A stretch of 32,000 nucleotides of DNA from Halorhodospira halophila SL1. GTDB taxonomy: Bacteria; Pseudomonadota; Gammaproteobacteria; Nitrococcales; Halorhodospiraceae. Location of the stretch: NCBI RefSeq assembly GCF_000015585.1, contig NC_008789.1, positions 390,001-422,000 on the forward strand. The letters run 5' to 3'. This document shows, piece by piece, positions 4,175-32,000 of this stretch. The notes under the pieces were generated by a model. That model did not search any database, was not told the origin of the DNA, and saw only the letters and a program-made list of their open reading frames with translations. Each line of letters starts with the position of its first letter. The first letter of the stretch is position 1. Position numbers and translations under genes: made by a program.

Positions 4175-4263
4175 GGCCGTCCCTCGTGGCGCCGGATGGT
4201 CGCGGGCCGGCCCCGCCTCCTCGCCGGGCCGGCCCCTTTCCAGCGTACACCTGCGGATCCGGC

Positions 4264-5484: not shown

Positions 5485-5766
5485 GCTAGAGCCTCCCGTA
5501 TCGATGGGCACCGGCCCCGTCGGATCGCGGGACCGCCTGGATCGAGAGGCTACGCCGGGCGACCCGGCGCCGTGAAAGAACGCTTTGGCCTATGCATATT
5601 CCGGCGCGGGGCCTCCGGAAGGGGGTCTCATCGGCCCACCCGGGACACGAATGCGGCGCCGGGGATCAATTGCCACACGCCCGCCCCGCTGATTGTTGAC
5701 TTCGTGGTAGGGTTGAAACATTGGGGTCGTCCAGACCCTGTTCCGGACCACCAGCGAGGAACGGCT

Positions 5767-8308: not shown

Positions 8309-9061
8309 TTGAAACTGATGGATCCTTCAGCCGTCCAGGTCGCTGATTACCGGGCCGCCATCTTCGACATGGACGGTGTGGTGACCCGTACCGCCACGGT
8401 ACACGCGCGGGCCTGGAAAGAGATGTTCGACACCTTCCTGCAGGAACACGCCGCGCGGACCGGCACGCCCTACCGGCCTTTCGACGCCGAGACCGAATAC
8501 TGGGAACACGTCGACGGCCTGCCCCGGCAGGAGGGGGTGCGCCGCTTCCTCGCCGCCCGCGGCATCGAACTCCCCGAGGGCGAGGACGGCGACCCGCCGG
8601 AGCGCGACACCATCCACGGCCTGGGCCAGCGCAAGGACCAGCTGATCCAGACGGTCATCGAACGCGACGGCGTGGAGGTCTTCCCGGACTGGCTGGAGCG
8701 GGTGCAGCAGTGGCGCGCGGCCGGGGTGAAGACGGCCATCGTCTCCTCGAGTCGCAACTGCCGGACGATGATCCGCGCCGCCGGGATCGAGGCGCTCTTC
8801 GATGCCCGGGTGGACGGCGAGACCGCCCGCGAGCTGGGCCTGCGCGGCAAGCCGGACGCCGACATCTTCCTGGTGGCCGCCGAACGGCTGGGTGTAGCGC
8901 CGGAGCAGAGCGTCATCTTTGAGGACGCCATCTCCGGCGTGCAGGCCGGGGCCGCCGGCCCCTTCGCCCTAGTGGTAGGGGTGGCCCGCCACGACAACCA
9001 CGACGTCCTGCGTGAGCACGGCGCCGATATCGCCGTGACCGCGCTGACCGAACTGAGCTGA
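8309..9061 (+). CDS. HAD-superfamily hydrolase, beta-phosphoglucomutase-family type.
   Basis: It has the DxDG nucleophile motif (IFDMDGVVT), the SSS motif (AIVSSSRN), GKPDADIF and FEDAISGVQAG. The TTG start at 8309 lies about 9 nt after GGGAGAGG. An alternative in-frame ATG is at 8318. Confidence 0.8.
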   Translation: MKLMDPSAVQVADYRAAIFDMDGVVTRTATVHARAWKEMFDTFLQEHAARTGTPYRPFDAETEYWEHVDGLPRQEGVRRFLAARGIELPEGEDGDPPERDTIHGLGQRKDQLIQTVIERDGVEVFPDWLERVQQWRAAGVKTAIVSSSRNCRTMIRAAGIEALFDARVDGETARELGLRGKPDADIFLVAAERLGVAPEQSVIFEDAISGVQAGAAGPFALVVGVARHDNHDVLREHGADIAVTALTELS

Positions 9062-9080
9062 GGCACAGGAGGCGCGAGCG

Positions 9081-9878
9081 ATGCACTCCCCCCGGGACCT
9101 GTTCGAGCCGGCGGTACGCGATGAACTCTACACTCGCATGGAGGGGCGGACCACGCCGCTGTTTCTTGACTACGACGGCACCCTGACACCGATCGTCGAC
9201 AACCCGGCCGATGCGCAGCTCGATCCGGCCATGCGCCAGGCCCTGGAGGCGCTGGCGGCCCGCCAGACGGTCGCCCTGGTCAGCGGCCGCGACCTGCAGG
9301 CGCTGCAGCGCTTCGTCGGCCTGGATTCGGTCTACTACGCCGGCAGCCACGGCTTCGAGATCGTCGGCCCCGGCGGCGTCCACCGCTGCAACGAGGAGGC
9401 GGAGGCCGGCCTTGAGGCCCTGGCCGCGGCGGCCGAGGCGCTGGACACGGCCCTGGCGGAGGTCGAGGGCACCCTGCTCGAGCGCAAGCGCTTCGCCCTG
9501 GCCGTACACTACCGCAACACCCCGGAGGATCAGGTCGCGGCGGTGCGCGCGGCCGTCGACGAGGTCCTCGAGCGCCACCCGGGGCTGCGCTGCGGGCCGG
9601 GCAAGTGCGTCTTCGAGCTGCAGCCGGATGTCGCCTGGGACAAGGGCCGCGCCGTGCTCTGGCTGCTCGAGGCCCTGTCCCTGAACAACGGCGACACCCT
9701 GCCCATCTACATCGGCGACGACTGGACCGACGAGCACGCCTTCCGCGCCCTGGAGGGCCGGGGCGTCGGCATCTTCGTCGGCGACCTCGACCGGGCCACC
9801 GCCGCCGACTACCGGGTGGCCGACGTGGACGCCGTCCGCCAATTCTTCGAGCAGATGCTGAAGGGGCTGGAGCGATGA
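9081..9878 (+). CDS. otsB: Trehalose-6-phosphate phosphatase (OtsB-type HAD-IIB).
   Basis: It has LFLDYDGTLTPIV (DxDGT nucleophile), LVSGRDL, and the GDDWTDEHAF metal-binding motif near the C-terminus. AGGAGG lies 8 nt upstream of the ATG. The stop overlaps the next start (ATGA). Confidence 0.8.
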   Translation: MHSPRDLFEPAVRDELYTRMEGRTTPLFLDYDGTLTPIVDNPADAQLDPAMRQALEALAARQTVALVSGRDLQALQRFVGLDSVYYAGSHGFEIVGPGGVHRCNEEAEAGLEALAAAAEALDTALAEVEGTLLERKRFALAVHYRNTPEDQVAAVRAAVDEVLERHPGLRCGPGKCVFELQPDVAWDKGRAVLWLLEALSLNNGDTLPIYIGDDWTDEHAFRALEGRGVGIFVGDLDRATAADYRVADVDAVRQFFEQMLKGLER

Positions 9879-13226: not shown

Positions 13227-13293
13227 GGGCTATTGAGGGGCACCGGCCTTTTGGTCCACCTTATGCGCTCTTCGATCCCTGATGGAGGCATGC

Positions 13294-14766
13294 ATGGAGT
13301 CTTATAGGCAGCGCATTGGACTGTTCCTGGGGCCGGTGGTCGCACTGGCCGGATTCCTGATCGGTCCGCCGGGAGAACTGAGCCAGGCGGAGTGGAGCGT
13401 CGCCCTGGTCGCCATCCTGATGGCCATCTGGTGGATCAGTGAGGCGTTGCCCCTCGCCGCCACGGCCCTGGTCCCCATCGTCGCCTTCCCGCTGCTGGGG
13501 GTCATGGAGGTCGGCGACGTCACCGAGGCCTACGGCAACCACCTGATCTACCTGTTCCTGGGTGGCTTCTTCATCGCCGTCACCATGCAGCGCTGGAACC
13601 TCCATCGGCGCATCGCCCTGCACACCATCAACCTCGTCGGCCCCTCACCGCGACGGATCATCCTCGGCTTCATGCTCGCCACCGCCGGGCTGTCCATGTG
13701 GATCAGTAACACGGCCACGGCGATGATGATGCTGCCCATCGCCCTGGCGGTGCTCAAGCAGAGCCAGGAGGAGGCTGAGCAGAACGGCCAGGAGCTGCCC
13801 CGGGGCTTCGGCGTGGTGCTGATGCTCGGCGTTGCCTACGCCGCCTCCATCGGGGGCATCGCCACGCTGATCGGCACGCCGCCCAACGCCGTGCTCGCCG
13901 GTCAGGCCCAGGAGCTCTACGACATCGAGATCACCTTCGCCGGCTGGATGGCCTTCGGCCTGCCGCTGTCGATCCTCTTCCTGGGCATCGCCTGGGTCTA
14001 CCTGGCCTTTGGCCGCCACTGCCGTGGCATCGGGCATCTGGTCAGCGGCCGCGAGACCATCCGCCAGGAGCTGGCCGAGATCGGCCGCATGGCCCCGGCC
14101 GAGCGCCGCGTGCTGACCGTCTTCGTGCTGGTGGCCCTGGCCTGGGTGTCCCGCGGCTTCCTGCCCGAGGGCGTCCTCGACGAGTTCGGCGACGCCAGCA
14201 TCGCCATGGCCGGTGCCCTGGCCCTGTTCCTGCTGCCCTCGGGCAAGGAGAAAGGGCAGCGCCTGCTCGACTGGGACACCGCCGTGAAGATCCCCTGGGA
14301 CATCGTCCTGCTGTTCGGCGGCGGCTTCGCTCTGGCGGCCGGTTTCGGGGCCAGCGGGCTGTCCGAGAGCCTGGCCGAAGGCCTGCAGGTGCTCGACGGC
14401 GTCTCCATCTTCCTGATCATCGCCGCCTGCGTCGCCCTGGTGGTCTTCCTCACCGAGGTGACCTCCAACACCGCCACGGCGACGGTGTTCATCCCGCTGA
14501 TGGGTGCGCTGGCCGTGGCCACCAACTTCAACCCGCTGGTGCTGATGGCCGCCGTGGCGGTGGCTGCCTCCTGCGCGTTCATGCTGCCGGTGGCCACGCC
14601 GCCCAACGCCGTGGTCTTCGGCAGCCGGGCCCTGACCGTGCCGGACATGGCCCGCGCCGGGCTGCTGTTGAACCTGGTCACCATCGTGCTGACCACGCTG
14701 TTCGTCTACTTCCTGCTGCCGGTGGCCCTCGGCGTGGAGCTGACCACCATCATCGAGAAGCAGTAA
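13294..14766 (+). CDS. DASS/SLC13-family Na+-coupled anion (sulfate/di- or tricarboxylate) symporter.
   Basis: The polytopic product of about 490 aa has the two family hairpin motifs: SNTATAMMMLPI in the N-terminal half, and SNTATATVFIPL / PVATPPNAVVF in the C-terminal half. I chose the ATG at 13294 (GGAGG with a 5-nt spacer). An in-frame ATG at 13282 is the alternative. Confidence 0.8.
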   Translation: MESYRQRIGLFLGPVVALAGFLIGPPGELSQAEWSVALVAILMAIWWISEALPLAATALVPIVAFPLLGVMEVGDVTEAYGNHLIYLFLGGFFIAVTMQRWNLHRRIALHTINLVGPSPRRIILGFMLATAGLSMWISNTATAMMMLPIALAVLKQSQEEAEQNGQELPRGFGVVLMLGVAYAASIGGIATLIGTPPNAVLAGQAQELYDIEITFAGWMAFGLPLSILFLGIAWVYLAFGRHCRGIGHLVSGRETIRQELAEIGRMAPAERRVLTVFVLVALAWVSRGFLPEGVLDEFGDASIAMAGALALFLLPSGKEKGQRLLDWDTAVKIPWDIVLLFGGGFALAAGFGASGLSESLAEGLQVLDGVSIFLIIAACVALVVFLTEVTSNTATATVFIPLMGALAVATNFNPLVLMAAVAVAASCAFMLPVATPPNAVVFGSRALTVPDMARAGLLLNLVTIVLTTLFVYFLLPVALGVELTTIIEKQ

Positions 14767-14842: not shown

Positions 14843-16978
14843 TCAGTCGAGGCGGCGGCGGAACGGTGGCAGGGCGTCGAGGAGCTGACGACCGTAGCGC
14901 TGGGTCACCACCCGACGGTCGAGGATGGTGATCCGCCCCCGATCATCCTCCGAGCGCACCAGCCGGCCGCAGGCCTGGATCAGGCGCAGCGAGGCCCGCG
15001 GCAGGCTGAGGGTGTGGAAGGAGGAGCGCTGCTGATCCTCCAGCCACTCGCCGAGGGTGGCGATCACCGGCTCGGTGGGAACACCGAAGGGGATGCGCTC
15101 GATGACCACGTGATCGCAGTAGCGGCCGGGCAGATCCACCCCCTCGGCCATGCCCGCCAGCCCGAACAGGATGCTCCCCTGCCCGGCATCGACGGCCTCG
15201 CGGTGGCGCTCGAGCATCGCCTCGCGGGAACGTTCGCCCTGGCACTGCAGCTGCTCACGCAGGGTCTCCGGCAGGGCCTGGGCCACCCGCTCCATGCGCT
15301 GGCGGCTGGTGAAAAGCACCAGCGCCGCCTCGTAAGGGTCGAGGAGCTCCGGCAGCCACTGGCAGACCTCGGCCAGGTGCGCCTCGGCGTTGCGCGGGTC
15401 ACTGCGCAGCGCCGGTACGTGGAGCAGCGAGCGGCTGTAGTCGAAGGGGGATGGCAGCCACCCCTGGCTGATGAGGGCGTCGTCCTCGGGGAGACCGAGA
15501 TCGCTGCGCAGGTGATCGAAGCGCCCCAGCGCCCTCAGCGTGGCGCTGGTGATCACGGCACCGGCACAGCGATCCCACAACCGCCGGGCCAGCTCACCGG
15601 CCACCGAGACCGGCGAGACCGAGACCCGGTGATCCACGGCACCGTCCGACTCCGCCTGGCGCTCCACCCAGCGGGCCACGGGCGGCACGCCGGCAGCCTC
15701 CTGCTCGCCGAGCAGCTGCCAGGTGGTGGCCAGGTTCGCCGCCCGCTCGCGCAGGAAGCCGAGCCGCGGCAGCTGGCGCTCCAGCTCCTGGGTGTCGCCG
15801 CGCTGCGCCTCCAGGGCGCTGTAGACCCGATCGGTGAACGCCTGCAGGGCCTCGTGGAGTCCCCGCGCCGGGTCGGCCACGCGCCCGGCCAGCTCGCGCA
15901 CAGGGTCGGGGGCCTGGCCGGCGCGGAAGCGCCAGCGCTCCCCCTCAGCGTCGGCGCGGTAGTTGTGCTGGAGGAAGGTGTCCGCCTCCTGCAGTGCGGC
16001 GGCCACCTCGCTGAGGCGTTCCTGCAGCCGTTGCGCCTCGGCGTCCGGCGGCTCGCCGGCCGTGTCGTCCGGCAGCACCGCCGCGGTGTCCGTGGCAACG
16101 CCCTCGCCCTCCTCCAGCCACGTCCGCGCCGCCTGCACGCGGGCACTGGCGGCGAAGCGCTGCACCGCCTTGGCGGCCAGGTGGTGGCCCTCGTCGATGA
16201 CGTAGAGCGCCTGCTCCGGGGGCGGCAGCAGCACGCCGCCCTGCTCCTCGCCGAGCTGCAGGTCGGCGAGGAGCAGATCGTGGTTGGTGATCACCACCTC
16301 GGCGCGGGCCACCCGGTCGCGGGCCGCGTAGACCGGGCAGCCCTCGAAGTGGGCACACCGCCGCCCGGAGCAGGAGTGGCTGGTGGAGGTGATCATCGGG
16401 CGCAGGTCGTCGGCCACGCCGTCGGCCCATTCGTCCAGGTCGCCGCCCCAGCGCTCCCCGTCCAGGGCCTCGGCCATCGCCTGCAGCTGCTCGGGCTCGC
16501 CCGGCTGCGGCGGGCGCGGCCAGCGCGCGGTGCCCAGGACCTCGCCGGCCAGCGCCTGCTGCGCCCCCGACTCAGCCTGCCCGGACTGGCCGACCAGCTC
16601 GTTGAGGTTGCGCGGGCAGAGGTAGCGTCCGCGGCCTTTGGCCACGGTGGCGTCGACCTCGATGCCGGCGTAGCGGGCCAGCTTGGGCAGGTCCTGGTGG
16701 AGAATCTGCTCCTGCAGGCCCACCGTGGCGGTGGCGATGACCAGCGGCAGGTCGCGGCTCCGGGCCACGGGTACCCCGCCGAGCAGATAGCTGAGGCTCT
16801 TGCCGGTGCCGGTGGGCGCCTCGATGGCCAGCAGGCGGTGGGGGTGATCCGCATCGAAGGCCTTGGCGACCTCCCAGATCATGCGTTTCTGCGCCTCCCG
16901 CTCGCGGAATCCGGGCATCTCGTCGCGGACCCGGCGGTAGGCGGTGGCGATGGTGTCGGTGATATCAGGCTCGGGCAT
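14843..16978 (-). CDS. dinG: ATP-dependent DNA helicase DinG (XPD/Rad3-like, Fe-S cluster helicase).
   Basis: The 711-aa product has Walker A (IEAPTGTGKSLSYL), a DEGH box (VIDEGHHL) and the Fe-S cysteines (YLCPRN...HSCSGRRCAHFEGCPVY). It is colinear with E. coli DinG from the N-terminus. Confidence 0.9.
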   Translation of the reverse strand: MPEPDITDTIATAYRRVRDEMPGFREREAQKRMIWEVAKAFDADHPHRLLAIEAPTGTGKSLSYLLGGVPVARSRDLPLVIATATVGLQEQILHQDLPKLARYAGIEVDATVAKGRGRYLCPRNLNELVGQSGQAESGAQQALAGEVLGTARWPRPPQPGEPEQLQAMAEALDGERWGGDLDEWADGVADDLRPMITSTSHSCSGRRCAHFEGCPVYAARDRVARAEVVITNHDLLLADLQLGEEQGGVLLPPPEQALYVIDEGHHLAAKAVQRFAASARVQAARTWLEEGEGVATDTAAVLPDDTAGEPPDAEAQRLQERLSEVAAALQEADTFLQHNYRADAEGERWRFRAGQAPDPVRELAGRVADPARGLHEALQAFTDRVYSALEAQRGDTQELERQLPRLGFLRERAANLATTWQLLGEQEAAGVPPVARWVERQAESDGAVDHRVSVSPVSVAGELARRLWDRCAGAVITSATLRALGRFDHLRSDLGLPEDDALISQGWLPSPFDYSRSLLHVPALRSDPRNAEAHLAEVCQWLPELLDPYEAALVLFTSRQRMERVAQALPETLREQLQCQGERSREAMLERHREAVDAGQGSILFGLAGMAEGVDLPGRYCDHVVIERIPFGVPTEPVIATLGEWLEDQQRSSFHTLSLPRASLRLIQACGRLVRSEDDRGRITILDRRVVTQRYGRQLLDALPPFRRRLD

Positions 16979-17079: not shown

Positions 17080-17547
17080 ATGTTGATCGACCAGCTTCGC
17101 GCCTACTGGCACCACGCCGCCCACCGACTACCGACCCCCGAGGGCCTGCGCCGGCATGCCGTAGCCCTTCCCCTGCTGGCCTTGATTGCCGTCCCGGTGG
17201 GGCCGGCCAGCGCCGGCTACCATTCCGTAGCCCCAAGCCTGGAGGCGCTGCTCGCCTTCGACGGGGTGCTCATCGACATCCGCAGGCCCTACGAGTGGCA
17301 ACAGACGGGTGTCGTCGAAGGCTCCGTGCAGCTGACCTTCTCTAACCCCGACTCCTTCCTCGAGGCACTGGAGCCGCACCTGGAGGCGGGCACCCCCATC
17401 GCCCTGATCTGCCGCACCGGCAGCCGCACCCAACAGGCCGGGCGGATGCTGGCCCGCCACCTGGATGTGCCGGTGATCAACATCGAGGGCGGCATCGTCC
17501 GGCTCATGCACCTGGGCTACGACCCGGTCCCCCCGAACGGGCGGTAA
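17080..17547 (+). CDS. Single-domain rhodanese (sulfurtransferase), probably exported, PspE-like.
   Basis: It has the rhodanese fold signature LIDIRRPYEWQQTGVVEGS and the active-site loop LICRTGSRT (Cys in a 6-residue loop). The N-terminal hydrophobic segment RRHAVALPLLALIAVPVGPASA looks like a signal peptide. Confidence 0.8.
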   Translation: MLIDQLRAYWHHAAHRLPTPEGLRRHAVALPLLALIAVPVGPASAGYHSVAPSLEALLAFDGVLIDIRRPYEWQQTGVVEGSVQLTFSNPDSFLEALEPHLEAGTPIALICRTGSRTQQAGRMLARHLDVPVINIEGGIVRLMHLGYDPVPPNGR

Positions 17548-17568: not shown

Positions 17569-17582
17569 TTGATAACCCTCAA
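17569..17582. promoter_or_regulatory. FNR/CRP-family-type box 1 (TTGATaaccCTCAA).
   Basis: It matches TTGAT-N4-ATCAA at 9 of 10 positions. It sits in the only AT-rich island upstream of the oxidoreductase operon. Confidence 0.45.
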
Positions 17583-17597
17583 ACTCCTGTCTACCGT

Positions 17598-17611
17598 TTG
17601 AGCGATATCAA
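17598..17611. promoter_or_regulatory. FNR/CRP-family-type box 2 (TTGAGcgatATCAA).
   Basis: It matches TTGAT-N4-ATCAA at 9 of 10 positions. Its centre lies 29 bp from the centre of box 1 and 77 nt upstream of the arxB2-like ATG. Boxes 1 and 2 are mirror images of each other. Confidence 0.45.
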
Positions 17612-17681: not shown

Positions 17682-18860
17682 ATGCCCGAGCGGCCCCACG
17701 GCGGTGCGGGCGGTTTCCGGGTGCTGCGCCCGGAAATCGGCAGGCTGGCGTTCCGCCCGGAGGCCTGCCTGCCCCGGCGCACCCCGCTGTCCGCGTGTCA
17801 GGCCTGCGCCCGGGCGTGTCCGGTGGAGGCCCTGCACCTGGCGAACGGCCCGGCGCAGCTTACGGACCACTGCCTGAGCTGCGGGCAGTGTGTCGCGGCC
17901 TGCCCCACGGGCGCCCTGCAGGTACCGGGCTTCGGCGTGGCGGTGGCCGACGACGCGCCGGCGCGGCTCGATTGCTACCGGGTCGATCGGACGGACGCCG
18001 CGGACGTCCGGGTGCCTTGCCTGGGCGGGCTCGGCGCCGCCGATCTGCTCGAGCTCCATACCGCCGGCGGCGGCCGGGGGCCCGTGCTGCTGGATCGGGG
18101 CTGGTGCGCCGACTGCCCGCTGGGCGGCCCCGAACACCCGGCCCAGCGGGCCATCGAGCAGGCGGCTGATCTGCTGGCCGGGGGCCGGCCCGCCGAAGCC
18201 CTTCAGCCCCGCATCGAGACCGCCCCGCTCCCTTCCGCCCGCGCGCAGGCCCCGCTGCCCGGGGTTGCCGACGAGGCGCCGGTGAGCCGCCGCGACCTGC
18301 TGCGCCGTCTGGCCGGCCAGGCCGGCGCCACCGCCCGGGTCCTGGACGACGACGCCACCCCCGCGCACACCGCCCCGCTGCGCCACAAGATCACGCCCCG
18401 ACCGCGTACCCGGATGCTCAACGCCCTGGCGGCGCTCGGCGTCACGCCACCCCCGGCGCTCACCCCCCGGGTGACCATCCACGGTGGCTGCCAGGATCAC
18501 GGCGTCTGCGCCGCACTCTGCCCCACCGGGGCCCTCCACCGGGGCGAGGAGGCCGACGGCAGCGGGCTGGATTTCGACCCGGCCGCGTGCATCGCCTGCC
18601 AACTCTGCCAGCAGGCCTGCCCCGAACAGGCCCTCACCGTCACCGCGACGGGCGGCGCCCCGGCGCCGCATCCGCTGACCCGGCATGCGCAGCGCCCCTG
18701 CGCCGACTGCCAACGCACCTTCCCGGCCGCGGCAGACGAGGCGCTCTGCCCGGCGTGCCGCAAGTCCCGGGAGTTCGCCCGGGACGCCGCCCAGCGATTC
18801 CGCCCGCCTCGCCCGGGGCGCGGCAGCGACGCAACCGATCCACAGGAGGAGAGCGCATGA
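17682..18860 (+). CDS. arxB2: Multi-[4Fe-4S] ferredoxin-domain protein, ArxB2-like, the first gene of the operon.
   Basis: Cluster motifs are CQACARACP, CLSCGQCVAACP, CQDHGVCAALCP and CIACQLCQQACP, plus a C-terminal CADC-X12-CPAC. AGGAGGAGAGG lies directly upstream of the ATG. The stop overlaps the next start (ATGA). The symbol is assigned from position and context in an arx-like operon. Confidence 0.6.
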   Translation: MPERPHGGAGGFRVLRPEIGRLAFRPEACLPRRTPLSACQACARACPVEALHLANGPAQLTDHCLSCGQCVAACPTGALQVPGFGVAVADDAPARLDCYRVDRTDAADVRVPCLGGLGAADLLELHTAGGGRGPVLLDRGWCADCPLGGPEHPAQRAIEQAADLLAGGRPAEALQPRIETAPLPSARAQAPLPGVADEAPVSRRDLLRRLAGQAGATARVLDDDATPAHTAPLRHKITPRPRTRMLNALAALGVTPPPALTPRVTIHGGCQDHGVCAALCPTGALHRGEEADGSGLDFDPAACIACQLCQQACPEQALTVTATGGAPAPHPLTRHAQRPCADCQRTFPAAADEALCPACRKSREFARDAAQRFRPPRPGRGSDATDPQEESA

Positions 18861-21358
18861 GCGTACTGGATCACCTAGTCTCGCGCCGGCGATTCCTGCA
18901 GGCCACCGGCGTCGGCGGCGGGGCTGTCGCCGCCGGGGGCGTCGGCCACCTGCTCAGCTTCAGCGCCGGCGGCAGCCACGCCCGGGCCGACGGCCCCGTT
19001 GGCGGCGGCGAGACGCAGATCACCAAGAACGTCTGCCACCAGTGCCCCGCCCGCTGCGGGATCGATGTCTACACCACCGACGGCCGCGTCCACGCCATCT
19101 ACGGCGACCCCGGCAACCCCATCGCCAACGGCCGCCTCTGCCCCAAGGGCCACCTGGGCAGCTACATCCTTTACGATCCGGACCGCTTCAAGGGGCCGAT
19201 GAAGCGCACCAACCCGAACAAAGGCCGGGACGAGGATCCGCAGTTCGAGGCCATCTCCTGGGACGAGGCCCTGGGGATCGTCGCCGAGCGGCTCAATCGG
19301 CTGCGCGAACAGGAAGAGTCGCACCGCTTCGCGCTGATGTACGGGCGCGGCTGGGGGGCGTCCTGCGCCGGCCTGCTGGGGCCGTTCGCCAAGCTCTACG
19401 GCACCCCCAACGTCATCGGTCACTCGTCGATGTGCTCCGACGGCTCGATGGTCGCCAAGGGCCTGACCGACGGCAACGAGTCGTACAACGCCTACGACTA
19501 CCGCAACACCAACTACATCCTCAACTTCGGTGCCGGCTTCCTGGAGGCGTTCCGCCCCTACAACTACCTCATGCAGGTGTGGGGGCACATGCGCACCAAG
19601 AGCCCGAAGACCCGGGTCACCGCGGTGGATGTGCACATGAACCCCACTCTGGCCGCCGCCGACCGGGCGGTGACCATCAAGCCGGCCACCGACGGCGCCA
19701 TGGCCCTGGCCATCGCCCACGAGATGCTGGTCAACGGCTACTGGGACCGCGACTTCGTCGGCGACTTCACCGACGGCGCCAACCGCTTCGAGGCCGGCAC
19801 CGAAATCGACCCCGACGACTTCGAGGAGGTCTGGACCCAGGGGCTCATCCGCTGGTGGAACGACGAGCTCAAGGACCGCACGCCGGAGTGGGCGGAGTCG
19901 ATCACCACGGTACCGGCCGAGACCATCCGCCGGGTGGCCTACGAGTTCGGCACCACCCGTCCGGCCATGGCCATCATGGAGCGCGGCCCCACCTCGCACT
20001 CCAACGGCACCTACAACGGCATGGCCATCCACGCGCTGAACGCCCTGGCCGGGACGCTGTTCACCGAGGGCGGTCTGTTCTATCAGATGGACGTGCCCTA
20101 CGGCGACGGCCCCGCCGACCCGGACGATTACCTGGACGACTACGCCGGGCGTATGCAGGAACGCTTCGATGAGGGCGAGATCCCGCGCATCGATAAACTC
20201 GGCACCGATCGCTGGCCGCTGGCGCGGAACATGATGCAGGAGGTCGGGCCCAACCACGCCGCCGGCGAGCCGTACAAGCTCGACACCATCCTGTTCTACC
20301 TCAACAACCCGATCTGGACGGCGCCCGATGCCACCGCCTGGGAAGAGGCCCTGAAGGATGTCTTCATCATCGATACCTCCCCCTTCCCCGGCGAGACGGC
20401 CCGGTACGCCGACCTGATCCTTCCCGACCACACCTACCTGGAGCGGCTGCAGGACGCCCCCACCTACCCCTTCGAGGGGTACCCGATGACCGCTCTGCGC
20501 ACCCCGGCGGTGGAGCCGCTCTACGACACCAAGGTCTTCGGCGACATCCTCATCGAGATCGGCAAGCGCCTCGACGGACCTGCCGGCGAGTACTGGCAGG
20601 CGGTGGGCGATACCGAGAACCTGCTCCGCCACCTGGCCGAAGGGTTCCGGGACCACCCCGGGGACAACGGCGTCGAGGATTTCGAGAGCTGGAAGGCGAA
20701 GGGCGTCTGGTACAAGAAGCCCTACCACTGGAAGCAGGAGCGCGGCGTCTTCTATGAGTGGGTGGAGGACGACGGCGACTACACCCACGAGATGTCCGCC
20801 GAGGAAGTGGCCGACAAGCTGATGCCAACCCCCTCCGGGCGGTTCGAGTTCTTCTCCGAGAAGCTCCAGGAGCACGCGGACTTCGTGGCCTCGGAGTTCG
20901 GCATCGACCACGAGCGTGCCGGCCTGATCCAGTGGGTCGATCCCGACCACCCCGGCGGCGGGGACCTCTACTTCTCGACCCCGAAGACGGCGCTCCACGC
21001 CGAGGGGCGCGGCGCCAATATCCCCCACGCCATCGCCCACGTGCAGCCGGTGATGGGTGGACGGACCACGGTCTATCTCGAGATCCACCCGCGCACCGCC
21101 CGCGAGCGGGGCATCCGCAGCGGCGACCGGGTCCGCATCGTCAGCGACGTGGGCGAGATCGAGGCCTACGCCCGGCTGTTCGAGGGCACCCGACCGGACA
21201 CGGTCTGCCTGCCCATGGAGCACGGCCACTGGGCCCAGGGGCGCTGGGCCGAGGGACGCAAGCCCGGCCACTCCGGCGAGGTGACCGTCAACCAGTCCGA
21301 CCGCATCTCGGGCCTGGCCAGCTACTACACCACCAAGGTCCGCGTCGAGCGCGCCTAG
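18857..21358 (+). CDS. arxA: Tat-exported molybdopterin (Mo-bisPGD, DMSO-reductase family) catalytic subunit, of the Arr/Arx clade; most likely the anaerobic arsenite oxidase ArxA.
   Basis: The 833-aa product has a twin-arginine signal (VSRRRFLQATGVGGGAVAAG) and an N-terminal [4Fe-4S] motif (CHQCPARC-X27-C). The probable Mo-ligand Cys is in GHSSMCSDGS. The motif MYGRGWGAS matches the XGRGWG signature I recall for ArxA, versus (R/K)GRY in ArrA. Confidence 0.7.
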   Translation: MSVLDHLVSRRRFLQATGVGGGAVAAGGVGHLLSFSAGGSHARADGPVGGGETQITKNVCHQCPARCGIDVYTTDGRVHAIYGDPGNPIANGRLCPKGHLGSYILYDPDRFKGPMKRTNPNKGRDEDPQFEAISWDEALGIVAERLNRLREQEESHRFALMYGRGWGASCAGLLGPFAKLYGTPNVIGHSSMCSDGSMVAKGLTDGNESYNAYDYRNTNYILNFGAGFLEAFRPYNYLMQVWGHMRTKSPKTRVTAVDVHMNPTLAAADRAVTIKPATDGAMALAIAHEMLVNGYWDRDFVGDFTDGANRFEAGTEIDPDDFEEVWTQGLIRWWNDELKDRTPEWAESITTVPAETIRRVAYEFGTTRPAMAIMERGPTSHSNGTYNGMAIHALNALAGTLFTEGGLFYQMDVPYGDGPADPDDYLDDYAGRMQERFDEGEIPRIDKLGTDRWPLARNMMQEVGPNHAAGEPYKLDTILFYLNNPIWTAPDATAWEEALKDVFIIDTSPFPGETARYADLILPDHTYLERLQDAPTYPFEGYPMTALRTPAVEPLYDTKVFGDILIEIGKRLDGPAGEYWQAVGDTENLLRHLAEGFRDHPGDNGVEDFESWKAKGVWYKKPYHWKQERGVFYEWVEDDGDYTHEMSAEEVADKLMPTPSGRFEFFSEKLQEHADFVASEFGIDHERAGLIQWVDPDHPGGGDLYFSTPKTALHAEGRGANIPHAIAHVQPVMGGRTTVYLEIHPRTARERGIRSGDRVRIVSDVGEIEAYARLFEGTRPDTVCLPMEHGHWAQGRWAEGRKPGHSGEVTVNQSDRISGLASYYTTKVRVERA

Positions 21359-21381
21359 GGCCGCGCTGAGGAGGAGTCATC

Positions 21382-22143
21382 ATGCCGAAATGGGGAATGG
21401 TCATCGACCTCGACAAGTGCACCGGCTGCCAGGCCTGCACCACGGCCTGCGCCATGGAGAACAACACCCTGCCCGGCGAGTCCTGGCAGGACGTACTGTT
21501 CTACAACGAAGGACGCTATCCGCACACCTCGATCAAGTGGTTCCCGCGGCCCTGCATGCAGTGCGAGAACCCCACCTGCGTCTACGTCTGCCCCACCCGG
21601 GCAACCTACAAGACCGAAGACGGGGTGGTGCTGGTGGACTGGGACCGGTGCATCGGCTGCAAGTACTGCATGATCGCCTGCCCCTACGGGGTGCGCTTCT
21701 ACGCCGACGAGAAGCCGCTCATCGAGCCGGATCTGCGCGAGGTCCACCCCGGCGAGGACGGGCAGATCTGGAGCCCGCCCTACCAGGGGCCGAACCAGGA
21801 CCACCGCACCGGCGTGGGCATTCAGCCCAAGGGCGTGGTTTCCAAGTGCACCTTCTGCTACCACCGCATCTCGCAGGCCCCGGAGGGCGTCGCCGACCTG
21901 GACGAGGACAACCCGGAGCTGGTCGAGTACGTGCCGGCCTGCGTCCGCACCTGTCCGCCCAAGGCGCGCTACTTCGGCGACCTCGACAACCCCGAGAGCC
22001 AGGTCAACCGACTGATCGCCGACAAGCGCGGCACGCGCATCAAGGAAGAGACCGGCAACCGACCGCAGGTCTACTACCTGGGCGAACACGGCACCGTGCC
22101 GACGTTCGATCCGCAATTCGAACACGACGACCGGTCCTCGTGA
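21382..22143 (+). CDS. arxB: Four-cluster [4Fe-4S] electron-transfer subunit (DmsB/PsrB type), ArxB-like.
   Basis: The 253-aa product starts MVIDLDKCTGCQACTTAC and also has CMQCENPTCVYVCP, CIGCKYCMIACP and CTFC...CVRTCP. GAGGAGGAG is the RBS. Confidence 0.75.
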   Translation: MPKWGMVIDLDKCTGCQACTTACAMENNTLPGESWQDVLFYNEGRYPHTSIKWFPRPCMQCENPTCVYVCPTRATYKTEDGVVLVDWDRCIGCKYCMIACPYGVRFYADEKPLIEPDLREVHPGEDGQIWSPPYQGPNQDHRTGVGIQPKGVVSKCTFCYHRISQAPEGVADLDEDNPELVEYVPACVRTCPPKARYFGDLDNPESQVNRLIADKRGTRIKEETGNRPQVYYLGEHGTVPTFDPQFEHDDRSS

Positions 22144-22174
22144 CCGCGCACGGCTGCGCTGAGGAGGCAGGATC

Positions 22175-23356
22175 ATGAGCATCACCGCTGAGCAGGCCGG
22201 GGGCACCCCGGCCCGGACTTCGAACCTCGTCCCCTACGCCACCCTGGCCGTCGGCATCGTCGGCCTGATCATCGCCTGCGCCCTGGCTCTGCCGGTCCTG
22301 ACCGAGGGTGGACAGGCCATGGCCATGGGCAGCGACATGATCTGGGGGCTGCCGGTGGCCGGCTACGCCTTCCTGGCGCTGACCTCCATGGGGGTCAGCC
22401 TGGCCGCGGCCACCGCGCTGCTCTCCGGGCGCACCGAGTGGCATCGGATGACGCCGCGGCTCTTCGCCCTGGCCCTGGGCCTCTCGGTGGGGGCGATCTT
22501 CGTCCTCAACCTGGAGCTCGGCAACGCCCTGCGCTCGCTCTGGGCCATCCCCACCGGGGTGCAGCTGCGCTCGCCCCTGGTGTGGATGGGCCTGGCCTGG
22601 ACCGCCTACATGGTGCTGGTGATCGCCATCCTGGTACGGCTGCACACCGCCGGCAGCCAGGATCCGGTGACCCGGCGCCTGGCGGTCGGCATCGTGGTCG
22701 CCGGCCTGGCCGCAATCGGCACCCAGGGGCTGGCCTACGGGATGTTCGCCTTCCGCCCGGTCTGGTACGGCATGGGCACGCCGCTCTACTTCTTCGTCGG
22801 TGCGGTGGCCAGCGGCCTGGCAGTCACCCTGATCGCCGCCCAGAGCGTGCGGCGCTTCCGCGGCTCCGAGGCCGACGGCGCCGAGTGGCGCTCCATCCAG
22901 GCCTACCTGCCGGCCGCCTTCGCCCTGGCACTGGCCGCCTACGCGGCGGTTCTGCTGGCGCGGATCATCGGCGGGCTGTGGGCACCGACGGCGGGGGTGC
23001 AGGTCGTCTACCAGGAGTTCTTGCGCAGCCCGCTGTTCTGGATCGAGATCGTCCTCGGCCTGGTGGCCCCGCTGGTGCTCATGGCCCGCGCGGCCTGGCG
23101 CAGCCAGCCGTGGGCGCAGGTCACCGCCGGGGCGCTGGCCCTGATCGGCCTGTTCATCGCCCGCTATGAGCTGACCATCGGCGGCCAGATGGTGCCGCTG
23201 CTCAAGGGCACCTGGATCCCCGGCTTCATCGAGTACAGTCCCAATGCGGTCGAGTGGGGCATCGTGCTGGTGGGGGTGTTCACGGCGCTGATCTTCTACG
23301 GCCTGGGGGACCGGCTGCTGCGATCCGCCGGGCCCGACCGGGGCCGCGGGGCGTAA
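22175..23356 (+). CDS. arxC: NrfD/PsrC-family integral-membrane quinone-interacting anchor subunit, ArxC-like.
   Basis: The 393-aa product has about 8-10 TM helices and sits directly after the Fe-S subunit. GAGGAGG is the RBS. Confidence 0.75.
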   Translation: MSITAEQAGGTPARTSNLVPYATLAVGIVGLIIACALALPVLTEGGQAMAMGSDMIWGLPVAGYAFLALTSMGVSLAAATALLSGRTEWHRMTPRLFALALGLSVGAIFVLNLELGNALRSLWAIPTGVQLRSPLVWMGLAWTAYMVLVIAILVRLHTAGSQDPVTRRLAVGIVVAGLAAIGTQGLAYGMFAFRPVWYGMGTPLYFFVGAVASGLAVTLIAAQSVRRFRGSEADGAEWRSIQAYLPAAFALALAAYAAVLLARIIGGLWAPTAGVQVVYQEFLRSPLFWIEIVLGLVAPLVLMARAAWRSQPWAQVTAGALALIGLFIARYELTIGGQMVPLLKGTWIPGFIEYSPNAVEWGIVLVGVFTALIFYGLGDRLLRSAGPDRGRGA

Positions 23357-23364
23357 CCCCCGAT

Positions 23365-23391
23365 GGTGGCCCCGCCTGCGGCGGGGCCACC
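23365..23391 (+). other. Perfect 12-bp GC hairpin within the operon, between arxC and arxD.
   Basis: ggtggccccgcc-tgc-ggcggggccacc starts 9 nt after the arxC stop and ends 21 nt before the arxD ATG. There is no U-tract. Confidence 0.5.
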
Positions 23392-23412
23392 CCGAACCTG
23401 CGGGAGTACTGC

Positions 23413-24279
23413 ATGGCCACGACGGATTCCACCACGGAACGCGCGGAACTCTACCTCTGCCTGTCGCGGGCCTTCGTGACCCCGCACGCCGAGGGGTTCC
23501 TGCCGGCCCTCGCCGAGGATCTGCCGGCGGATCTGGAGGCGCTGCTCGGCGCAGACGACCCCGGCGGCGAACGGATCGCCACCCTGCGCCGGGCGGCCCG
23601 GGCGCTCCCCGACACCGCCACGCTCAGACGCGGCTACACGGCCCTGTTCCTGAACCCGCCCTACCGGGCCCCCCTCAACGCAGGCCTGCAGCTCGAGGGG
23701 GCGATCAATGGCGCTGTGGTCCAGGCCATCCGCGCCTGCTACCAGCGCCACGGCCTGGATCGAGCCGAATCCTTCCGGGATCTGCCGGACCACCTGGCCG
23801 CTCAGCTGGAGTTCGTCGCCTACCTGTGGGCCCAGCCCACCGAGGCGGAGACAACACGCCAGCTGCGCAACTTCCTGGAGCGCTACGTCACCCCATGGCT
23901 GCCGCGGCTGATCGGCCAGCTCAAGGCCGAACTCCCCCACCAGCCGGCCGCGGCGCTCTACCTGGCCCTGGCCGAGATCACCCGCCACGTCGCCGATGCC
24001 GACCACGCCCGCCTCCCGGCACCGCAGACGGCGGGCGCCCATCGGGCCCCCACGGCGGCGGATACGGCGCGCATCAGCGCCGCGGAGCAGGTGGCCACGG
24101 AGCAGCAGACGGCGGAGGTGGCGGTCGCCTGCCCGCGCTGTCAGGCCGCGGTGACGCTGCGCGGCAGCCAGGCAGCGGTCTATCGGCGGTTGCAGGGGGC
24201 CGGCGTCACCGCCGAGCATCTGTGCATTTGCCGCGACTGCCAGGCCCAAGGCCTGTCGCCGGCGCCCCGCAAGTACTGA
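23413..24279 (+). CDS. arxD: TorD/DmsD-family redox-enzyme maturation chaperone (ArxD-like) with a Cys-rich C-terminal extension of about 90 aa.
   Basis: Residues 1 to about 195 resemble TorD-like REMPs (ERAELYLCLSRAF, YTALFLNPP, DLPDHLAAQLEFVAYL). The tail carries CPRC-X27-CICRDC. GGGAG lies 7 nt upstream of the ATG at 23413. Confidence 0.65.
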   Translation: MATTDSTTERAELYLCLSRAFVTPHAEGFLPALAEDLPADLEALLGADDPGGERIATLRRAARALPDTATLRRGYTALFLNPPYRAPLNAGLQLEGAINGAVVQAIRACYQRHGLDRAESFRDLPDHLAAQLEFVAYLWAQPTEAETTRQLRNFLERYVTPWLPRLIGQLKAELPHQPAAALYLALAEITRHVADADHARLPAPQTAGAHRAPTAADTARISAAEQVATEQQTAEVAVACPRCQAAVTLRGSQAAVYRRLQGAGVTAEHLCICRDCQAQGLSPAPRKY

Positions 24280-25042: not shown

Positions 25043-26020
25043 ATGAGAATCAAGACCTGGAACATTGCCATCTGCGCCACCTCGGCGCTGGCGCTCTCGG
25101 CGCCGGCCCTGGCCGACCGCGACGACTGGCCGCGCAGCTTCACCGTGGGCACCGCCAGCCAGGGCGGCACCTACTACATCTACGGCAGCGGCTGGGCCGA
25201 TATGGTCGCCGGTATGCTCGACGTCCGCGCCGGCGGCGAGGTCACTGGCGGGCCGGTGCAGAACGCCACCCTGGTGGAGACCGGCGACCACGAGTTCGGC
25301 CTGGTGACCATGGGGCCGGCCCGCGCCGCCTGGGACGGCGAGAGCGAACTCGCCCCCGGCATGGAGCACAAGAACATCCGCGCGGTCTTCCCGATGTACC
25401 AGACCACCTTCCACATCATCACCCGCGAGGGCGATGACCTCACCTCCATGGAGGATCTGGAAGGCAAGCGCGTCGGGGTGGGGCCGTCCGGCGGCACCGC
25501 CGACATGTACTTCCCGCAGTTCTTCGATGAGCTGGGCATCGATGTGCGCGTGCGCAACGGCGGCGCCTCGGACCTCGCCGGGCAGCTGCAGGACGGGCTG
25601 ATCGACGCCTTCGCCTTCGCCGCGGGCACCCCGATCTCGGCGTTCTCGCAGCTCGAGGCGGAGATCGACACCAACATCTTCTCGGTCACCGAGGCGCAGC
25701 AGGAGCAGCTGCTGGAGGCCTTCCCGGCCCTGGCACCGGCGGACATCGAGGCGGACCTGTACGGCTCCCTGGATGAGGATACGCCGGCGATCTCCATCTG
25801 GAACTTCGCCATCACCCACCAGGACATGCCCGAGTCGCTGGTCTACGAGGTGACCAAGGCGGTCATGGAGAACCACGACCGGATGATGGACATCCACCGG
25901 GCCGCCCGCGAGACCCTGCCGGAGAACCACGAGTTCAACGACTGGATGCCCTGGCACCCGGGCGCCGTGCGCTGGTTCGAGGAGAACGGCTACGAGATCT
26001 CCGAAGACCTGCGCGGCTGA
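25043..26020 (+). CDS. TRAP transporter solute receptor, TAXI family.
   Basis: It has a signal peptide (ICATSALALSAPALA) and the TAXI signature FTVGTASQGGTYYIYGSGWA. It sits upstream of a fused TRAP permease. GGAGGAGGAG is the RBS. Confidence 0.85.
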   Translation: MRIKTWNIAICATSALALSAPALADRDDWPRSFTVGTASQGGTYYIYGSGWADMVAGMLDVRAGGEVTGGPVQNATLVETGDHEFGLVTMGPARAAWDGESELAPGMEHKNIRAVFPMYQTTFHIITREGDDLTSMEDLEGKRVGVGPSGGTADMYFPQFFDELGIDVRVRNGGASDLAGQLQDGLIDAFAFAAGTPISAFSQLEAEIDTNIFSVTEAQQEQLLEAFPALAPADIEADLYGSLDEDTPAISIWNFAITHQDMPESLVYEVTKAVMENHDRMMDIHRAARETLPENHEFNDWMPWHPGAVRWFEENGYEISEDLRG

Positions 26021-29269: not shown

Positions 29270-31885
29270 TCAGTCGCGGCCGGCGATCCCGGCCAGCAGG
29301 GCCGCCAGCCGTTGCCGGTCCACCGGCTTGGTCAGGTACTCGTCGCAGCCGGCTTCCAGGCACTCCTCGCGGACCTGATCGACGGCGTGGGCGCTCAGGG
29401 CGATGATCAGGGTGCGGGCTCGGCCGCGCTCGGCCTCGCGGGCGCGAATGGTGCGCACCGCATCCGGACCGTCAACCTCGGGCATTTGTACGTCCATGAG
29501 CACCAGGTCCCAGTCCTGCTCCTGCCAGGCGTCCACCGCCTGGCGGCCGTCCTCCACCAGGGTCGGGGTCACCCCGGCGAGCTCCAGCTGCGCCTGGATG
29601 AGCAGGGCGTTGGTGGGGTCATCCTCGGCCACCAGGACGCGCAGATGGGTCGTGCGGTGGGGCTCGGGCGTCGCCTCGAACGCCGCCTGCGGCGGCTCCA
29701 CGCGGGGCAGACGCGCCGTGAAATAGAAGGTGGACCCCTTGCCCAGCTCGCTGGTCATCTCCAACCGCCCGCCCATCAGCCGCACCAACTCCTGGCAGAT
29801 CCGCAGCCCCAGGCCGTTGCCGGGCTGGCGCCGGAACGACGGGTTCCCCTGGGCAAACGCCTTGAAGATGTGCTCCCGATCCTCCGGGGCGATCCCCACC
29901 CCGGTGTCGTGGACCGCCACGTAGAGCCAACCGCTGCCCTCGGGCGCCACCTCCAGCACCACCTCGCCGTGCTCGGTGAACTGGATGGCGTTGCTGATCA
30001 GGTTATGCACGACCTGGCCGAAGCGGGTGGCGTCGCCCCGCACCCATTGCGGCGTGCCCGGCGCCTCCCGGACGGTGAGGCGCAGTCCGGCCTCCTCGGC
30101 GACGGCCCGCAGCACCGCCACCTGGCGCTCCACGACCTCCGCCAGCTCGAAGGGCTCGTCGTGCAGGGTCAGCCGCCCCGACTCCATGCGCGAGAGATCG
30201 AGCAGGGTGTCGATCAGTGCCAGCAGCTTCTCGCTGGCGCTACGGCACAACCCGAGGTATTCGCGCTGCTGCGGGGTCAGCTCCGTGGCCTGGAGCAAAT
30301 CAGTGAAGCCGTAGATGGCATTGAGGGGCGTGCGCAGATCGTGGCTGACCGCCGCGAGGAAGGTTCGTCGATCGCGGTCGGCCTGGGCGCGCGCCCGCTC
30401 GGCCGCGACCTGCTCGGTGATGTCGATGCCCACGGCCTGGAAGTGGCTGATCAGTCCGTCCTCATCGAAGAAGGCCTGGCAGGTCCACTGCACCCGGCGC
30501 TGCTCCCCTGTGGCGGCGAGCACCGCGAGCTGCACGGTGCCCACCGGCGCCGCCCGGGTGAAGCGGCACAGGAAGGCCTCCAGCTGCTCGCGCGCCTCCG
30601 GCCCGAGCCACTCGATCCAGCGCCGGCCGTCCATCTGCGGCGGCGGGATCCCGAACAGCTCGGCCACCATGCGGTTGGCGTAGAGCAGCGTGGTATCCGG
30701 CAGGAAGCGCTGGATCAGGTGCGGGTGGTGGTCGAGGATCTCCAGCATCTGATCGCGCTCGCGCTCGATGCGCCTGCGCCGGCTGATGTCCTGGAAGGAG
30801 AGCACAATGCCGGTGATCCCGCCCTCCACATCGCGCAGCGGGGCGGCGTAAACCAGCACATCGAAGCCCCGGCCGTCGGTCCGCCAGAAGTAGTCCTGCC
30901 ACGCCTCCAAGGGCTCGCCGCTGCGCAGCACCCGGAAAATCGGACATTCCTCCAGCGGATACGGGGTGCCGTCCGGACGGCTATGGTGCGTCAGCGCGTG
31001 GGCCTCCCGGCCGAGGGCGGCCTCCTCGGAGGCAAACCCGAGCAACTGCCGGGCGGCGGGGTTGAGGAAGGTGAAACGCCCGGCGTCATCGAGCCCGCAC
31101 ACCCCTTCGTTGATGGCCTCGAGCAGGCGATCCCGCTCACCCTGCAGGCGGACGTGGGCCGAGATATCCTCGACCATGCCGTCGAATACCGTCCGCCCGT
31201 GCTCATCCTCCACCCGCCGCACTGAAAGCCGCAGCCAGAGCGGCCGACCGCGCAGCGTCCGGGCCTGGAGCTCCGCCCAGCTCACGGAGCCTTCGCGCTC
31301 GATCAGGGCACTGATCTCGGCCCGGCGTTCCGGGTCCCGGTAGAGCGCCGCGACCGGCGTCGCCAGCAGCTGCGCCTCGCTCTCGGCCTCGAAGAGCTCG
31401 ACCATCGCCGGGTTGACCTCAAGGAAACGCCCCGAAGGCCCGGGGGTGTTGCGGTAGATGCCCACCGGCAGGGAGCGGAATAGATCGTGGAAGACCTCCA
31501 GGCGGCGCTGATAGCGGCGTGTATCGGTGATGTCGTGGATGATGGAGTGAAGGTACTGCCGTCCGGCGAGCTCCAGCGGCCCGCTGTAGACCTCGACGTC
31601 CCGGACTTCGCCGCCGCACAAGCGGTGCTGGAAGCGGAAGTAGCGCCGCTGCTCGGCCCGGGCGCGGGCCATTTCGGCGCGCACTTGCGGCTCGTCCAAG
31701 GTATTGATCTGCTGGATCCGCATGCCGCAGAGCTCCTCCCGAGGGTACCCGTAGAAGCGCACGGCACTGGGGTTGGCGTCGAGGATGGCGCCGGTCTCGG
31801 GATCGATGAGCAGCTGAACCGCGACATGCTCGGTGAACATGCGGGTGTACAGCCGCTGCGCCTCGGACTGCTCGGATCGGTTCAT
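29270..31885 (-). CDS. Hybrid sensor histidine kinase: 4 x PAS, HisKA, HATPase_c and a C-terminal receiver.
   Basis: There are four PAS/PAC units. The H-box is FLAAVSHDLRTPLNAI. The N/G boxes are VVHNLISNAIQFT, DTGVGI and GNGLGLRICQ. The receiver is VLVAEDDPTNALL...LVLMDVQMPEVDG...TKP. The start is set at the ATG at 31885 (AGGGA upstream). The GTG at 31909 is the alternative. Confidence 0.85.
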   Translation of the reverse strand: MNRSEQSEAQRLYTRMFTEHVAVQLLIDPETGAILDANPSAVRFYGYPREELCGMRIQQINTLDEPQVRAEMARARAEQRRYFRFQHRLCGGEVRDVEVYSGPLELAGRQYLHSIIHDITDTRRYQRRLEVFHDLFRSLPVGIYRNTPGPSGRFLEVNPAMVELFEAESEAQLLATPVAALYRDPERRAEISALIEREGSVSWAELQARTLRGRPLWLRLSVRRVEDEHGRTVFDGMVEDISAHVRLQGERDRLLEAINEGVCGLDDAGRFTFLNPAARQLLGFASEEAALGREAHALTHHSRPDGTPYPLEECPIFRVLRSGEPLEAWQDYFWRTDGRGFDVLVYAAPLRDVEGGITGIVLSFQDISRRRRIERERDQMLEILDHHPHLIQRFLPDTTLLYANRMVAELFGIPPPQMDGRRWIEWLGPEAREQLEAFLCRFTRAAPVGTVQLAVLAATGEQRRVQWTCQAFFDEDGLISHFQAVGIDITEQVAAERARAQADRDRRTFLAAVSHDLRTPLNAIYGFTDLLQATELTPQQREYLGLCRSASEKLLALIDTLLDLSRMESGRLTLHDEPFELAEVVERQVAVLRAVAEEAGLRLTVREAPGTPQWVRGDATRFGQVVHNLISNAIQFTEHGEVVLEVAPEGSGWLYVAVHDTGVGIAPEDREHIFKAFAQGNPSFRRQPGNGLGLRICQELVRLMGGRLEMTSELGKGSTFYFTARLPRVEPPQAAFEATPEPHRTTHLRVLVAEDDPTNALLIQAQLELAGVTPTLVEDGRQAVDAWQEQDWDLVLMDVQMPEVDGPDAVRTIRAREAERGRARTLIIALSAHAVDQVREECLEAGCDEYLTKPVDRQRLAALLAGIAGRD

Positions 31886-32000
31886 AACGGTCCCTGCCGG
31901 CGCTGCCACCGACCTGTTTCAACTCCGCAGCACCATACCACCGGCGTGCACCCGATTGGGGCGGTGCGGCGGGATGCCGGCTGCTGGCCTCAGCCGCTGC

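Follow-up and report, generated by a model that had tools for sequence, protein, structure and literature searches.

An Arx-type arsenite oxidase operon without adjacent arxXSR genes in Halorhodospira halophila SL1, and candidate FNR-type boxes in its promoter region

What enzyme is encoded by a compact five-gene cluster of the anoxygenic phototroph Halorhodospira halophila SL1, and how is this cluster controlled when the sensor genes typical of such loci do not lie beside it? The cluster occupies positions 17682–24279 of a 32,000-nucleotide stretch of the genome (NCBI RefSeq assembly GCF_000015585.1, contig NC_008789.1, positions 390,001 to 422,000 of the forward strand), which was analyzed as a whole and is referred to here as the window. 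A preliminary description, made from the sequence alone, had read it as an arxB2ABCD-like operon for anaerobic arsenite oxidation with no adjacent arxX, arxS and arxR (arxXSR) genes. The present analysis indicates that the cluster is very probably the arxB2ABCD operon of H. halophila and encodes an anaerobic Arx-type arsenite oxidase, a confidence that applies jointly to this assignment, the mechanism proposed for the enzyme and the regulation considered below. The existence of the H. halophila arx cluster, the placement of its ArxA in the ArxA clade, the As(III)-oxidizing phenotype and the missing arxXSR have all been published previously; any novelty may be confined to regulation, namely the coupling of arxXSR to a sigma-54 promoter and the FNR-type boxes that stand in its place here. 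The five genes are as follows.

17682–18860, forward strand: arxB2, 392 amino acids, multi-cluster ferredoxin (Pfam Fer4, Fer4_7)
18857–21358, forward strand: arxA, 833 amino acids, Tat-exported Mo-bisPGD catalytic subunit (Pfam and NCBIfam, motifs, tree)
21382–22143, forward strand: arxB, 253 amino acids, four-cluster electron-transfer subunit (Pfam Fer4_11)
22175–23356, forward strand: arxC, 393 amino acids, NrfD/PsrC-type integral membrane anchor that interacts with quinone (Pfam NrfD)
23413–24279, forward strand: arxD, 288 amino acids, TorD/NarJ-family maturation chaperone (Pfam Nitrate_red_del)

The initial picture of five tightly packed, co-directional genes was borne out, with each open reading frame (ORF) found at exactly these coordinates; the ATGA overlap at the arxB2/arxA junction (GCATGAGC) and the spacers of 23, 31 and 56 nt after arxA, arxB and arxC were likewise confirmed in the sequence, and the subunit types predicted for the five products agree with their Pfam and NCBIfam domains. 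A GGAGG-type ribosome-binding site is located close 5′ of arxB2, arxA, arxB and arxC, and arxD is preceded by a weaker GGGAG alone. Because their third-codon-position GC content (GC3) is 0.89–0.95 in a genome of 70% GC, the five ORFs are typical of real genes. A consensus scan for a terminator 3′ of arxD identified none, and the hairpin fold in this region was not significant (z −1.6).

The identity of the enzyme was addressed mainly through its catalytic subunit. ArxA comprises the domains Molybdop_Fe4S4, Molybdopterin and Molydop_binding and carries a twin-arginine translocation (TAT) signal (TIGR01409, 21.4 bits compared with a cutoff of 16.7), with RRRFL at residues 10–14. The three catalytic-subunit motifs reported at the outset are all present in the 833-residue protein: the FS0 motif CX2CX3CX27C at residues 60–95 (C60, C63, C67 and C95); YGRGWG at residues 162–167; and SSMCSDGS at residues 190–197, in which the Mo-ligand Cys193 is aligned to the Mo-Cys context of ArrA. 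The second motif bears on the distinction between Arx, which has XGRGWG, and ArrA, which has (R/K)GRY (PMC6549141, after Glasser et al., 2018), and the claim that the protein carries the former instead of the latter held, with YGRGWG aligned opposite the RGRY of the solved Shewanella ArrA (6cz7).

For the phylogenetic analysis, the wider family was sampled by scanning 1.84 billion cluster representatives exhaustively with HMMER, and to this sample named Arx proteins, Arx proteins from related loci and ArrA were added; the resulting alignment contained 146 sequences, and a neighbor-joining (NJ) tree was constructed from 68 of these (755 columns, 200 bootstraps). The [YFN]GRGWG proteins, including the window ArxA, form a single clade in this tree (200/200 bootstraps), and the motif is found in 19/19 of the Arx-clade sequences. 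The RGRY proteins, including ArrA of Shewanella sp. ANA-3, form a separate clade (187/200), and the Psr/Phs-like sequences fall outside both; the check on the earlier assignment therefore placed ArxA inside the ArxA clade and not on a branch with Psr, Phs or Ttr. At the level of pairwise identity, the window ArxA is 69% identical to the genetically verified ArxA of Ectothiorhodospira sp. BSL-9 and 63% identical to Aromatoleum ArxA. An identical protein is encoded by contig NRRO01000011.1, which belongs to H. halophila BN9630 (the assignment of NRRO to this strain follows the strain table in PMC8877833), and the next-closest relatives, at 94% identity, are those of unclassified Halorhodospira. 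Three further lineages (P0122, P0123 and P0124), which are 42–49% identical to ArxA, branch beside the Arx clade as its sisters; the grouping of Arx with all three has 200/200 support, and their variant motifs GGRYRG, AGRLRG and YGRGMG replace GRGWG or RGRY.

The gene order leads to the same assignment. A genome scan in which each GTDB species was represented once yielded 80 related loci; since it returned neither H. halophila nor Alkalilimnicola ehrlichii MLHE-1, the BSL-9 locus (L086; CP011994) was used as the verified reference. The order arxB2-A-B-C-D, proposed for the window from the beginning, is kept in BSL-9 and, with few exceptions, across the 80 species loci. The BSL-9 operon contains the same five genes, which encode 400, 838, 245, 397 and 308 amino acids compared with 392, 833, 253, 393 and 288 in the window, and the Tat signal, FS0 motif, Mo-Cys and XGRGWG are common to the two ArxA proteins. 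The phylogeny, motif and synteny, together with the literature on H. halophila discussed below, support the original identification of an Arx-type arsenite oxidase.

The remaining four products are consistent with this enzyme. ArxB contains 16 cysteines in four groups and a Fer4_11 domain; its best match in the PDB is ArrB (6cz7_B, E 1.2e-42), and it is 62–84% identical across the related loci. It has no signal peptide of its own and is presumably co-exported with ArxA. ArxC matches Pfam NrfD with 64.5 bits, has at least nine hydrophobic segments and is syntenic in the related loci. ArxD matches Pfam Nitrate_red_del, of the TorD family, with 69.7 bits; beyond the TorD domain, its residues 240–276 (window 24130–24240) form a zinc-ribbon-like C-terminal tail, CxxC-x27-CxCxxC, the cysteine pairs of which are kept in 27 of 66 homologs, among them that of BSL-9. 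The remaining homologs have lost the tail cysteines, though many retain the GL...HL core. ArxB2, to which no role is assigned in the arx literature (PMC6549141), contains two Fer4 dicluster domains of the CX2CX2CX3CP type, as identified by Pfam and by its cysteine motifs, and nearly all of the 80 related loci have a gene in this place to which it is 29–49% identical. It has neither a Tat nor a Sec signal and no hydrophobic segment, and for this reason it is probably cytoplasmic, while ArxAB would be periplasmic. Additional CX2C pairs are located at residues 142/145, 340/343 and 356/359 of ArxB2.

The nearest competing assignment is that the enzyme is physiologically a respiratory arsenate reductase of the Arr type, or bidirectional, rather than an oxidase. 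ArrA is indeed the nearest structurally characterized relative: the best solved structure for ArxA is Shewanella ArrA 6cz7 (E 3e-113), followed by Thermus PsrA 2vpw (E 9e-55), and the ArrA model (NF041714) is the top NCBIfam match. ArrAB of Shewanella sp. ANA-3 shares with the window enzyme its fold, its cofactor set, the CX2CX3CX27C motif, a Mo-ligating Cys within HSS(V/M)C and a B subunit with four clusters. In addition, the Arx enzyme of MLHE-1 is reportedly reversible in vitro. Nevertheless, the NCBIfam match, at 453 bits, lies far under the equivalog cutoff of 1600 bits, the window ArxA is only 33% identical to ANA-3 ArrA, YGRGWG stands where ArrA has (R/K)GRY, and the window ArxA belongs to a clade distinct from ArrA with full bootstrap support. 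The Arr reference also lacks a B2 gene and works in the opposite physiological direction, and the host has been seen to oxidize, not reduce, arsenic (PMC5370401). An Arr-like or bidirectional role is therefore considered highly unlikely. A polysulfide, thiosulfate or tetrathionate reductase is more improbable still: JGI labels several 65–69% identical homologs "thiosulfate reductase / polysulfide reductase chain A", a periplasmic rhodanese gene is kept just 5′ of arx in Halorhodospira, such an enzyme would suit the host's sulfur lifestyle and PsrABC also has an A/B/NrfD architecture, but the match to the PhsA model (NF012032) reaches 278 bits where the cutoff is 694, the identity to PhsA-like representatives is 30–32% compared with 69% to a genetically verified ArxA, the Psr/Phs-like sequences lie outside the Arx and Arr clades, and the rhodanese-arx linkage is not seen outside Halorhodospira.

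For the Arx-type arsenite oxidase, a mechanism can be proposed in which family knowledge is combined with the sequence features of the window genes. ArxD, as a TorD-like chaperone, would retain apo-ArxA in the cytoplasm pending insertion of the Mo-bisPGD cofactor, after which the folded ArxA would be exported through the Tat pathway by means of its twin-arginine signal, with the signal-less four-cluster ArxB alongside. The ArxAB dimer would dock onto the NrfD-type membrane subunit ArxC, and arsenite in the periplasm would be oxidized to arsenate at the Mo ligated by Cys193. The two electrons would pass from the FS0 [4Fe-4S] cluster (C60/63/67/95) through the four clusters of ArxB to ArxC and the quinone pool, from which they would feed photosynthetic electron flow; MK-8 is listed for H. 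halophila (PMC8877833).

The physiology of the organism is known in part. When illuminated under anaerobic conditions, H. halophila DSM 244 oxidizes As(III) to As(V), and its genome contains arxA in an arx-like cluster, with the ArxA protein in the ArxA clade, and no aioA (PMC5370401). Three considerations weigh against the assignment. First, operon and phenotype are linked in H. halophila through homology and through the absence of aio. Second, the organism does not grow when As(III) is its only electron donor (PMC5370401), and the physiological role could for this reason be supplementary or detoxifying. Third, in sulfidic medium thioarsenic species could be what the enzyme really acts on.

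The second part of the question concerns the sensor genes. Reference ArxX, ArxS and ArxR sequences were taken from Thioalkalivibrio sulfidiphilus, in which they were identified by Pfam, and were used in tblastn searches. The arxXSR genes are adjacent to arx in 44 loci and absent from 15 whose upstream flank spans 5 kb or more; when at least 5 kb was required on both sides, absence was recorded for eight loci, which are the window and seven other species. Searches of the window by tblastn with the reference ArxX and ArxR found no match to either, and the only candidate for ArxS, a hybrid PAS kinase at 29270–31909, gave a 25%-identical match to the generic kinase core and was rejected. A TAXI-family TRAP receptor at 25043–26020 was also rejected as a substitute for ArxX: it belongs to PF16868 (NMT1_3) and not to PF12974, it has no tblastn match to ArxX, and its own DctM permease lies beside it. 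The statement that no arxXSR adjoins the operon was thus verified. In BSL-9, unlike the window, divergent arxX (Phosphonate-bd), arxS and arxR (encoding a sigma-54 activator) are present, and equivalent arxXSR/arxB2ABCD loci have been described for MLHE-1 and Azoarcus sp. CIB.

The further claim that this context is unusual was overstated. H. halophila SL1 oxidizes arsenite, but its genome yielded no identifiable arxXSR (Ospino et al., 2019, PMC6549141); the same study reported that Halomonas, Marinospirillum and Nitrincola are also without arxXSR, and their loci (Halomonas/Billgrantia in the case of the first) resemble the window in carrying arxB2ABCD with no adjacent sensor genes. Because arxXSR is absent in seven other species and its absence from H. 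halophila is published, adjacent arxXSR and a sigma-54 promoter are typical but not universal, and are not a defining feature of Arx; the missing arxXSR is a known minority state and not a discovery. In two Burkholderiales metagenome-assembled genomes without arxXSR (L057, 7349–8305; L073, 6186–7160; both on the reverse strand), a TctC/Bug-family periplasmic solute receptor gene is divergent from arxB2 and holds the position of arxX in other loci.

The distribution of promoter elements was then compared with that of the sensor genes. ArxR is a sigma-54 activator, as identified by Pfam in the T. sulfidiphilus reference and also in BSL-9, and a sigma-54 −24/−12 element was defined as TGGCAC-N5-TTGC with GG and GC exact and no more than two mismatches, located within 300 nt 5′ of arxB2. 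Such an element was found in 41 of the 44 loci with arxXSR, including BSL-9 (110 nt upstream of arxB2), compared with 2 of the 15 loci without (Fisher p 1.3e-8). Across the loci L002–L086, the promoter type in the 300 nt upstream of arxB2 and the sensor module are gained or lost together. The Halomonas-type loci without arxXSR resemble the window in having no good sigma-54 element 5′ of arxB2. A scan of the window arxB2 spacer for a −24/−12 element found none; one two-mismatch match, GGGCACCCCCATCGC at −294, falls within the rhodanese gene and was put down to chance. Unlike that of BSL-9, the upstream region of the window contains a rhodanese gene and two putative FNR-type boxes, as follows.

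17569–17582, no strand assigned: distal putative FNR/CRP-family-type box TTGATAACCCTCAA, centered 106.5 nt upstream of the arxB2 ATG
17598–17611, no strand assigned: proximal putative FNR/CRP-family-type box TTGAGCGATATCAA, centered 77.5 nt upstream of the arxB2 ATG

The 32-kb window contains only two TTGA-N6-TCAA cores, where 0.02 would be expected, and both are located in the 134-nt arxB2 spacer; with up to one mismatch to TTGAT-N4-ATCAA allowed, the same two sites are again the only ones (expected 0.08). At this stringency, FNR-type boxes occur 5′ of arxB2 in 0 of the 44 loci with arxXSR and 4 of the 15 loci without (p 0.003), and also in two loci with short flanks. In the window and in L082, L084, L057 and L073, the proximal box is centered 70.5–77.5 nt upstream of the ATG; the latter four show no arxXSR in the sequence available, and this position is common to loci with ArxA proteins 59–94% identical to that of the window. 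In L082, a Halorhodospira sp., the proximal box is the sole TTGA-N6-TCAA core in 19 kb, and the box in L084 is a perfect palindrome. The TTGAT...CAA of the distal box is invariant in the alignment of the window, L082 and L084. An FNR gene was sought as a neighbor in the box-carrying loci L057, L073 and L080, but the genes found upstream were the TctC receptor or ntrBC/dus. Among the papers in the searchable library, none that connects FNR with arx was found.

Given that arxXSR and the sigma-54 promoter are absent and that two FNR-family boxes are found in the spacer, the sequence suggests that arx control here may be anoxia-driven, through an FNR/ANR-type regulator, and not exerted by a periplasmic arsenite sensor. 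A more general version of this proposal is that, in Halorhodospira and a subset of the other loci without arxXSR, an FNR-family, oxygen-responsive promoter has taken over from the ancestral, arsenite-sensing ArxX-ArxS-ArxR/sigma-54 circuit, and that in Halorhodospira the operon is in addition coupled to a conserved periplasmic rhodanese; this is put forward tentatively, as something rather short of probable. Several observations count against it. L082 has a degenerate distal box (TTGATCTCCCGCAA), an FNR-type box is absent from 11 of the 15 loci without arxXSR, the Halomonas loci have no such box, and no convincing −10 hexamer was found at canonical spacing from either box. FNR boxes of class II are centered near −41.5 and those of class I near −61.5 from the transcription start, and with the candidate −10 hexamers CACAAT (17640–45) and GACCAT (17630–35) the proximal box would come to lie near −47 or −37.

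Alternatively, the operon may still be regulated by arsenite, through a regulator encoded elsewhere, for example an unlinked arxXSR-like system or a repressor of the ArsR type, or through the PAS hybrid kinase close by, with the boxes incidental or bound by a protein other than FNR. The ArsR-HTH/rhodanese fusion and the full ars cluster next to arx in L082, the ArsR near arxD in Halomonas loci, the hybrid PAS kinase 5 kb downstream of the operon in the window and the 11 box-less loci noted above would all fit such control, while the failure to identify arxXSR in the SL1 genome (PMC6549141), the lack of an ArsR or other HTH gene adjoining the operon in the window, the retention of the box position across loci with divergent ArxA proteins and the statistically exceptional occurrence of the boxes in the window argue against it. 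Arsenite-dependent control is accordingly regarded as possible without being probable.

The genes upstream of the operon had been named as a rhodanese and dinG, and both were found.

17080–17547, forward strand: single-domain rhodanese (Pfam Rhodanese, E 7.5e-11), with an N-terminal Sec-type signal (hydrophobic segment at residues 27–45, ASA|G)
14843–16978, reverse strand: DinG-type helicase, upstream neighbor

A 70%-identical ortholog of the rhodanese, including the signal-like segment, lies directly 5′ of arxB2 in L082 (8243–8686); among the related loci, no other genus has a rhodanese at that position, and it is a neighbor and not a core arx gene. Speculatively, the Halorhodospira rhodanese may be connected with sulfide or thioarsenate chemistry and could act on thio-arsenic species in sulfidic brines.

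Arsenic resistance genes were searched for by Pfam scans of every high-GC3 ORF of at least 80 amino acids in the window, and none of these ORFs showed an ArsA, ArsB, ArsC, ArsD, ArsR or Acr3 domain, in agreement with the earlier statement that no ars resistance genes occur in the 32 kb. A DASS/CitMHS transporter at 13282–14766 was considered as ArsB and rejected, its best Pfam matches being Na_sulph_symp and CitMHS, with no match to ArsB. This forward-strand ORF (494 amino acids, GC3 0.94, Na_sulph_symp 254 bits) is not among the genes that the public record lists for the stretch (L001, 4297–5987). In the sister strains, ars genes lie by arx: Usp-Acr3-ArsA′-ArsD-ArsC-ArsR directly after arxD in L082 (15533–19094) and L083, with an ArsR-HTH/rhodanese fusion upstream in both (L082, 7063–7719), and ArsB after arxD in L084 (8885–10177). 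The absence of ars genes from the window is therefore strain-level variation. The Halomonas loci also differ from the window in this respect, with Acr3-ArsD-ArsA upstream and ArsR downstream (L085, 1–2728 and 14066–14419). Further neighbors in the window, at 3173–5511, 5572–8226, 8309–12298 and 29270–31909, comprise a LysR regulator beside a YeeE/YedE sulfur-transport protein, a PAS-GGDEF-EAL protein, a trehalose module (HAD hydrolase, trehalose phosphatase and GH65 phosphorylase) and the PAS hybrid histidine kinase, which has a receiver domain.

In about 60 species, then, arxXSR and a sigma-54 promoter before arxB2 go together almost perfectly; the loci without the sensor have lost that promoter, and some of them, including the window, show FNR-type boxes instead. 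If an FNR-family promoter does control these operons, Arx would be made whenever the cells are anoxic, regardless of arsenite, and this rewiring might relate to the ability of H. halophila to oxidize As(III) without growing on As(III) alone. For such lineages, environmental surveys of arxA transcripts would then report anoxia and not exposure to arsenite.

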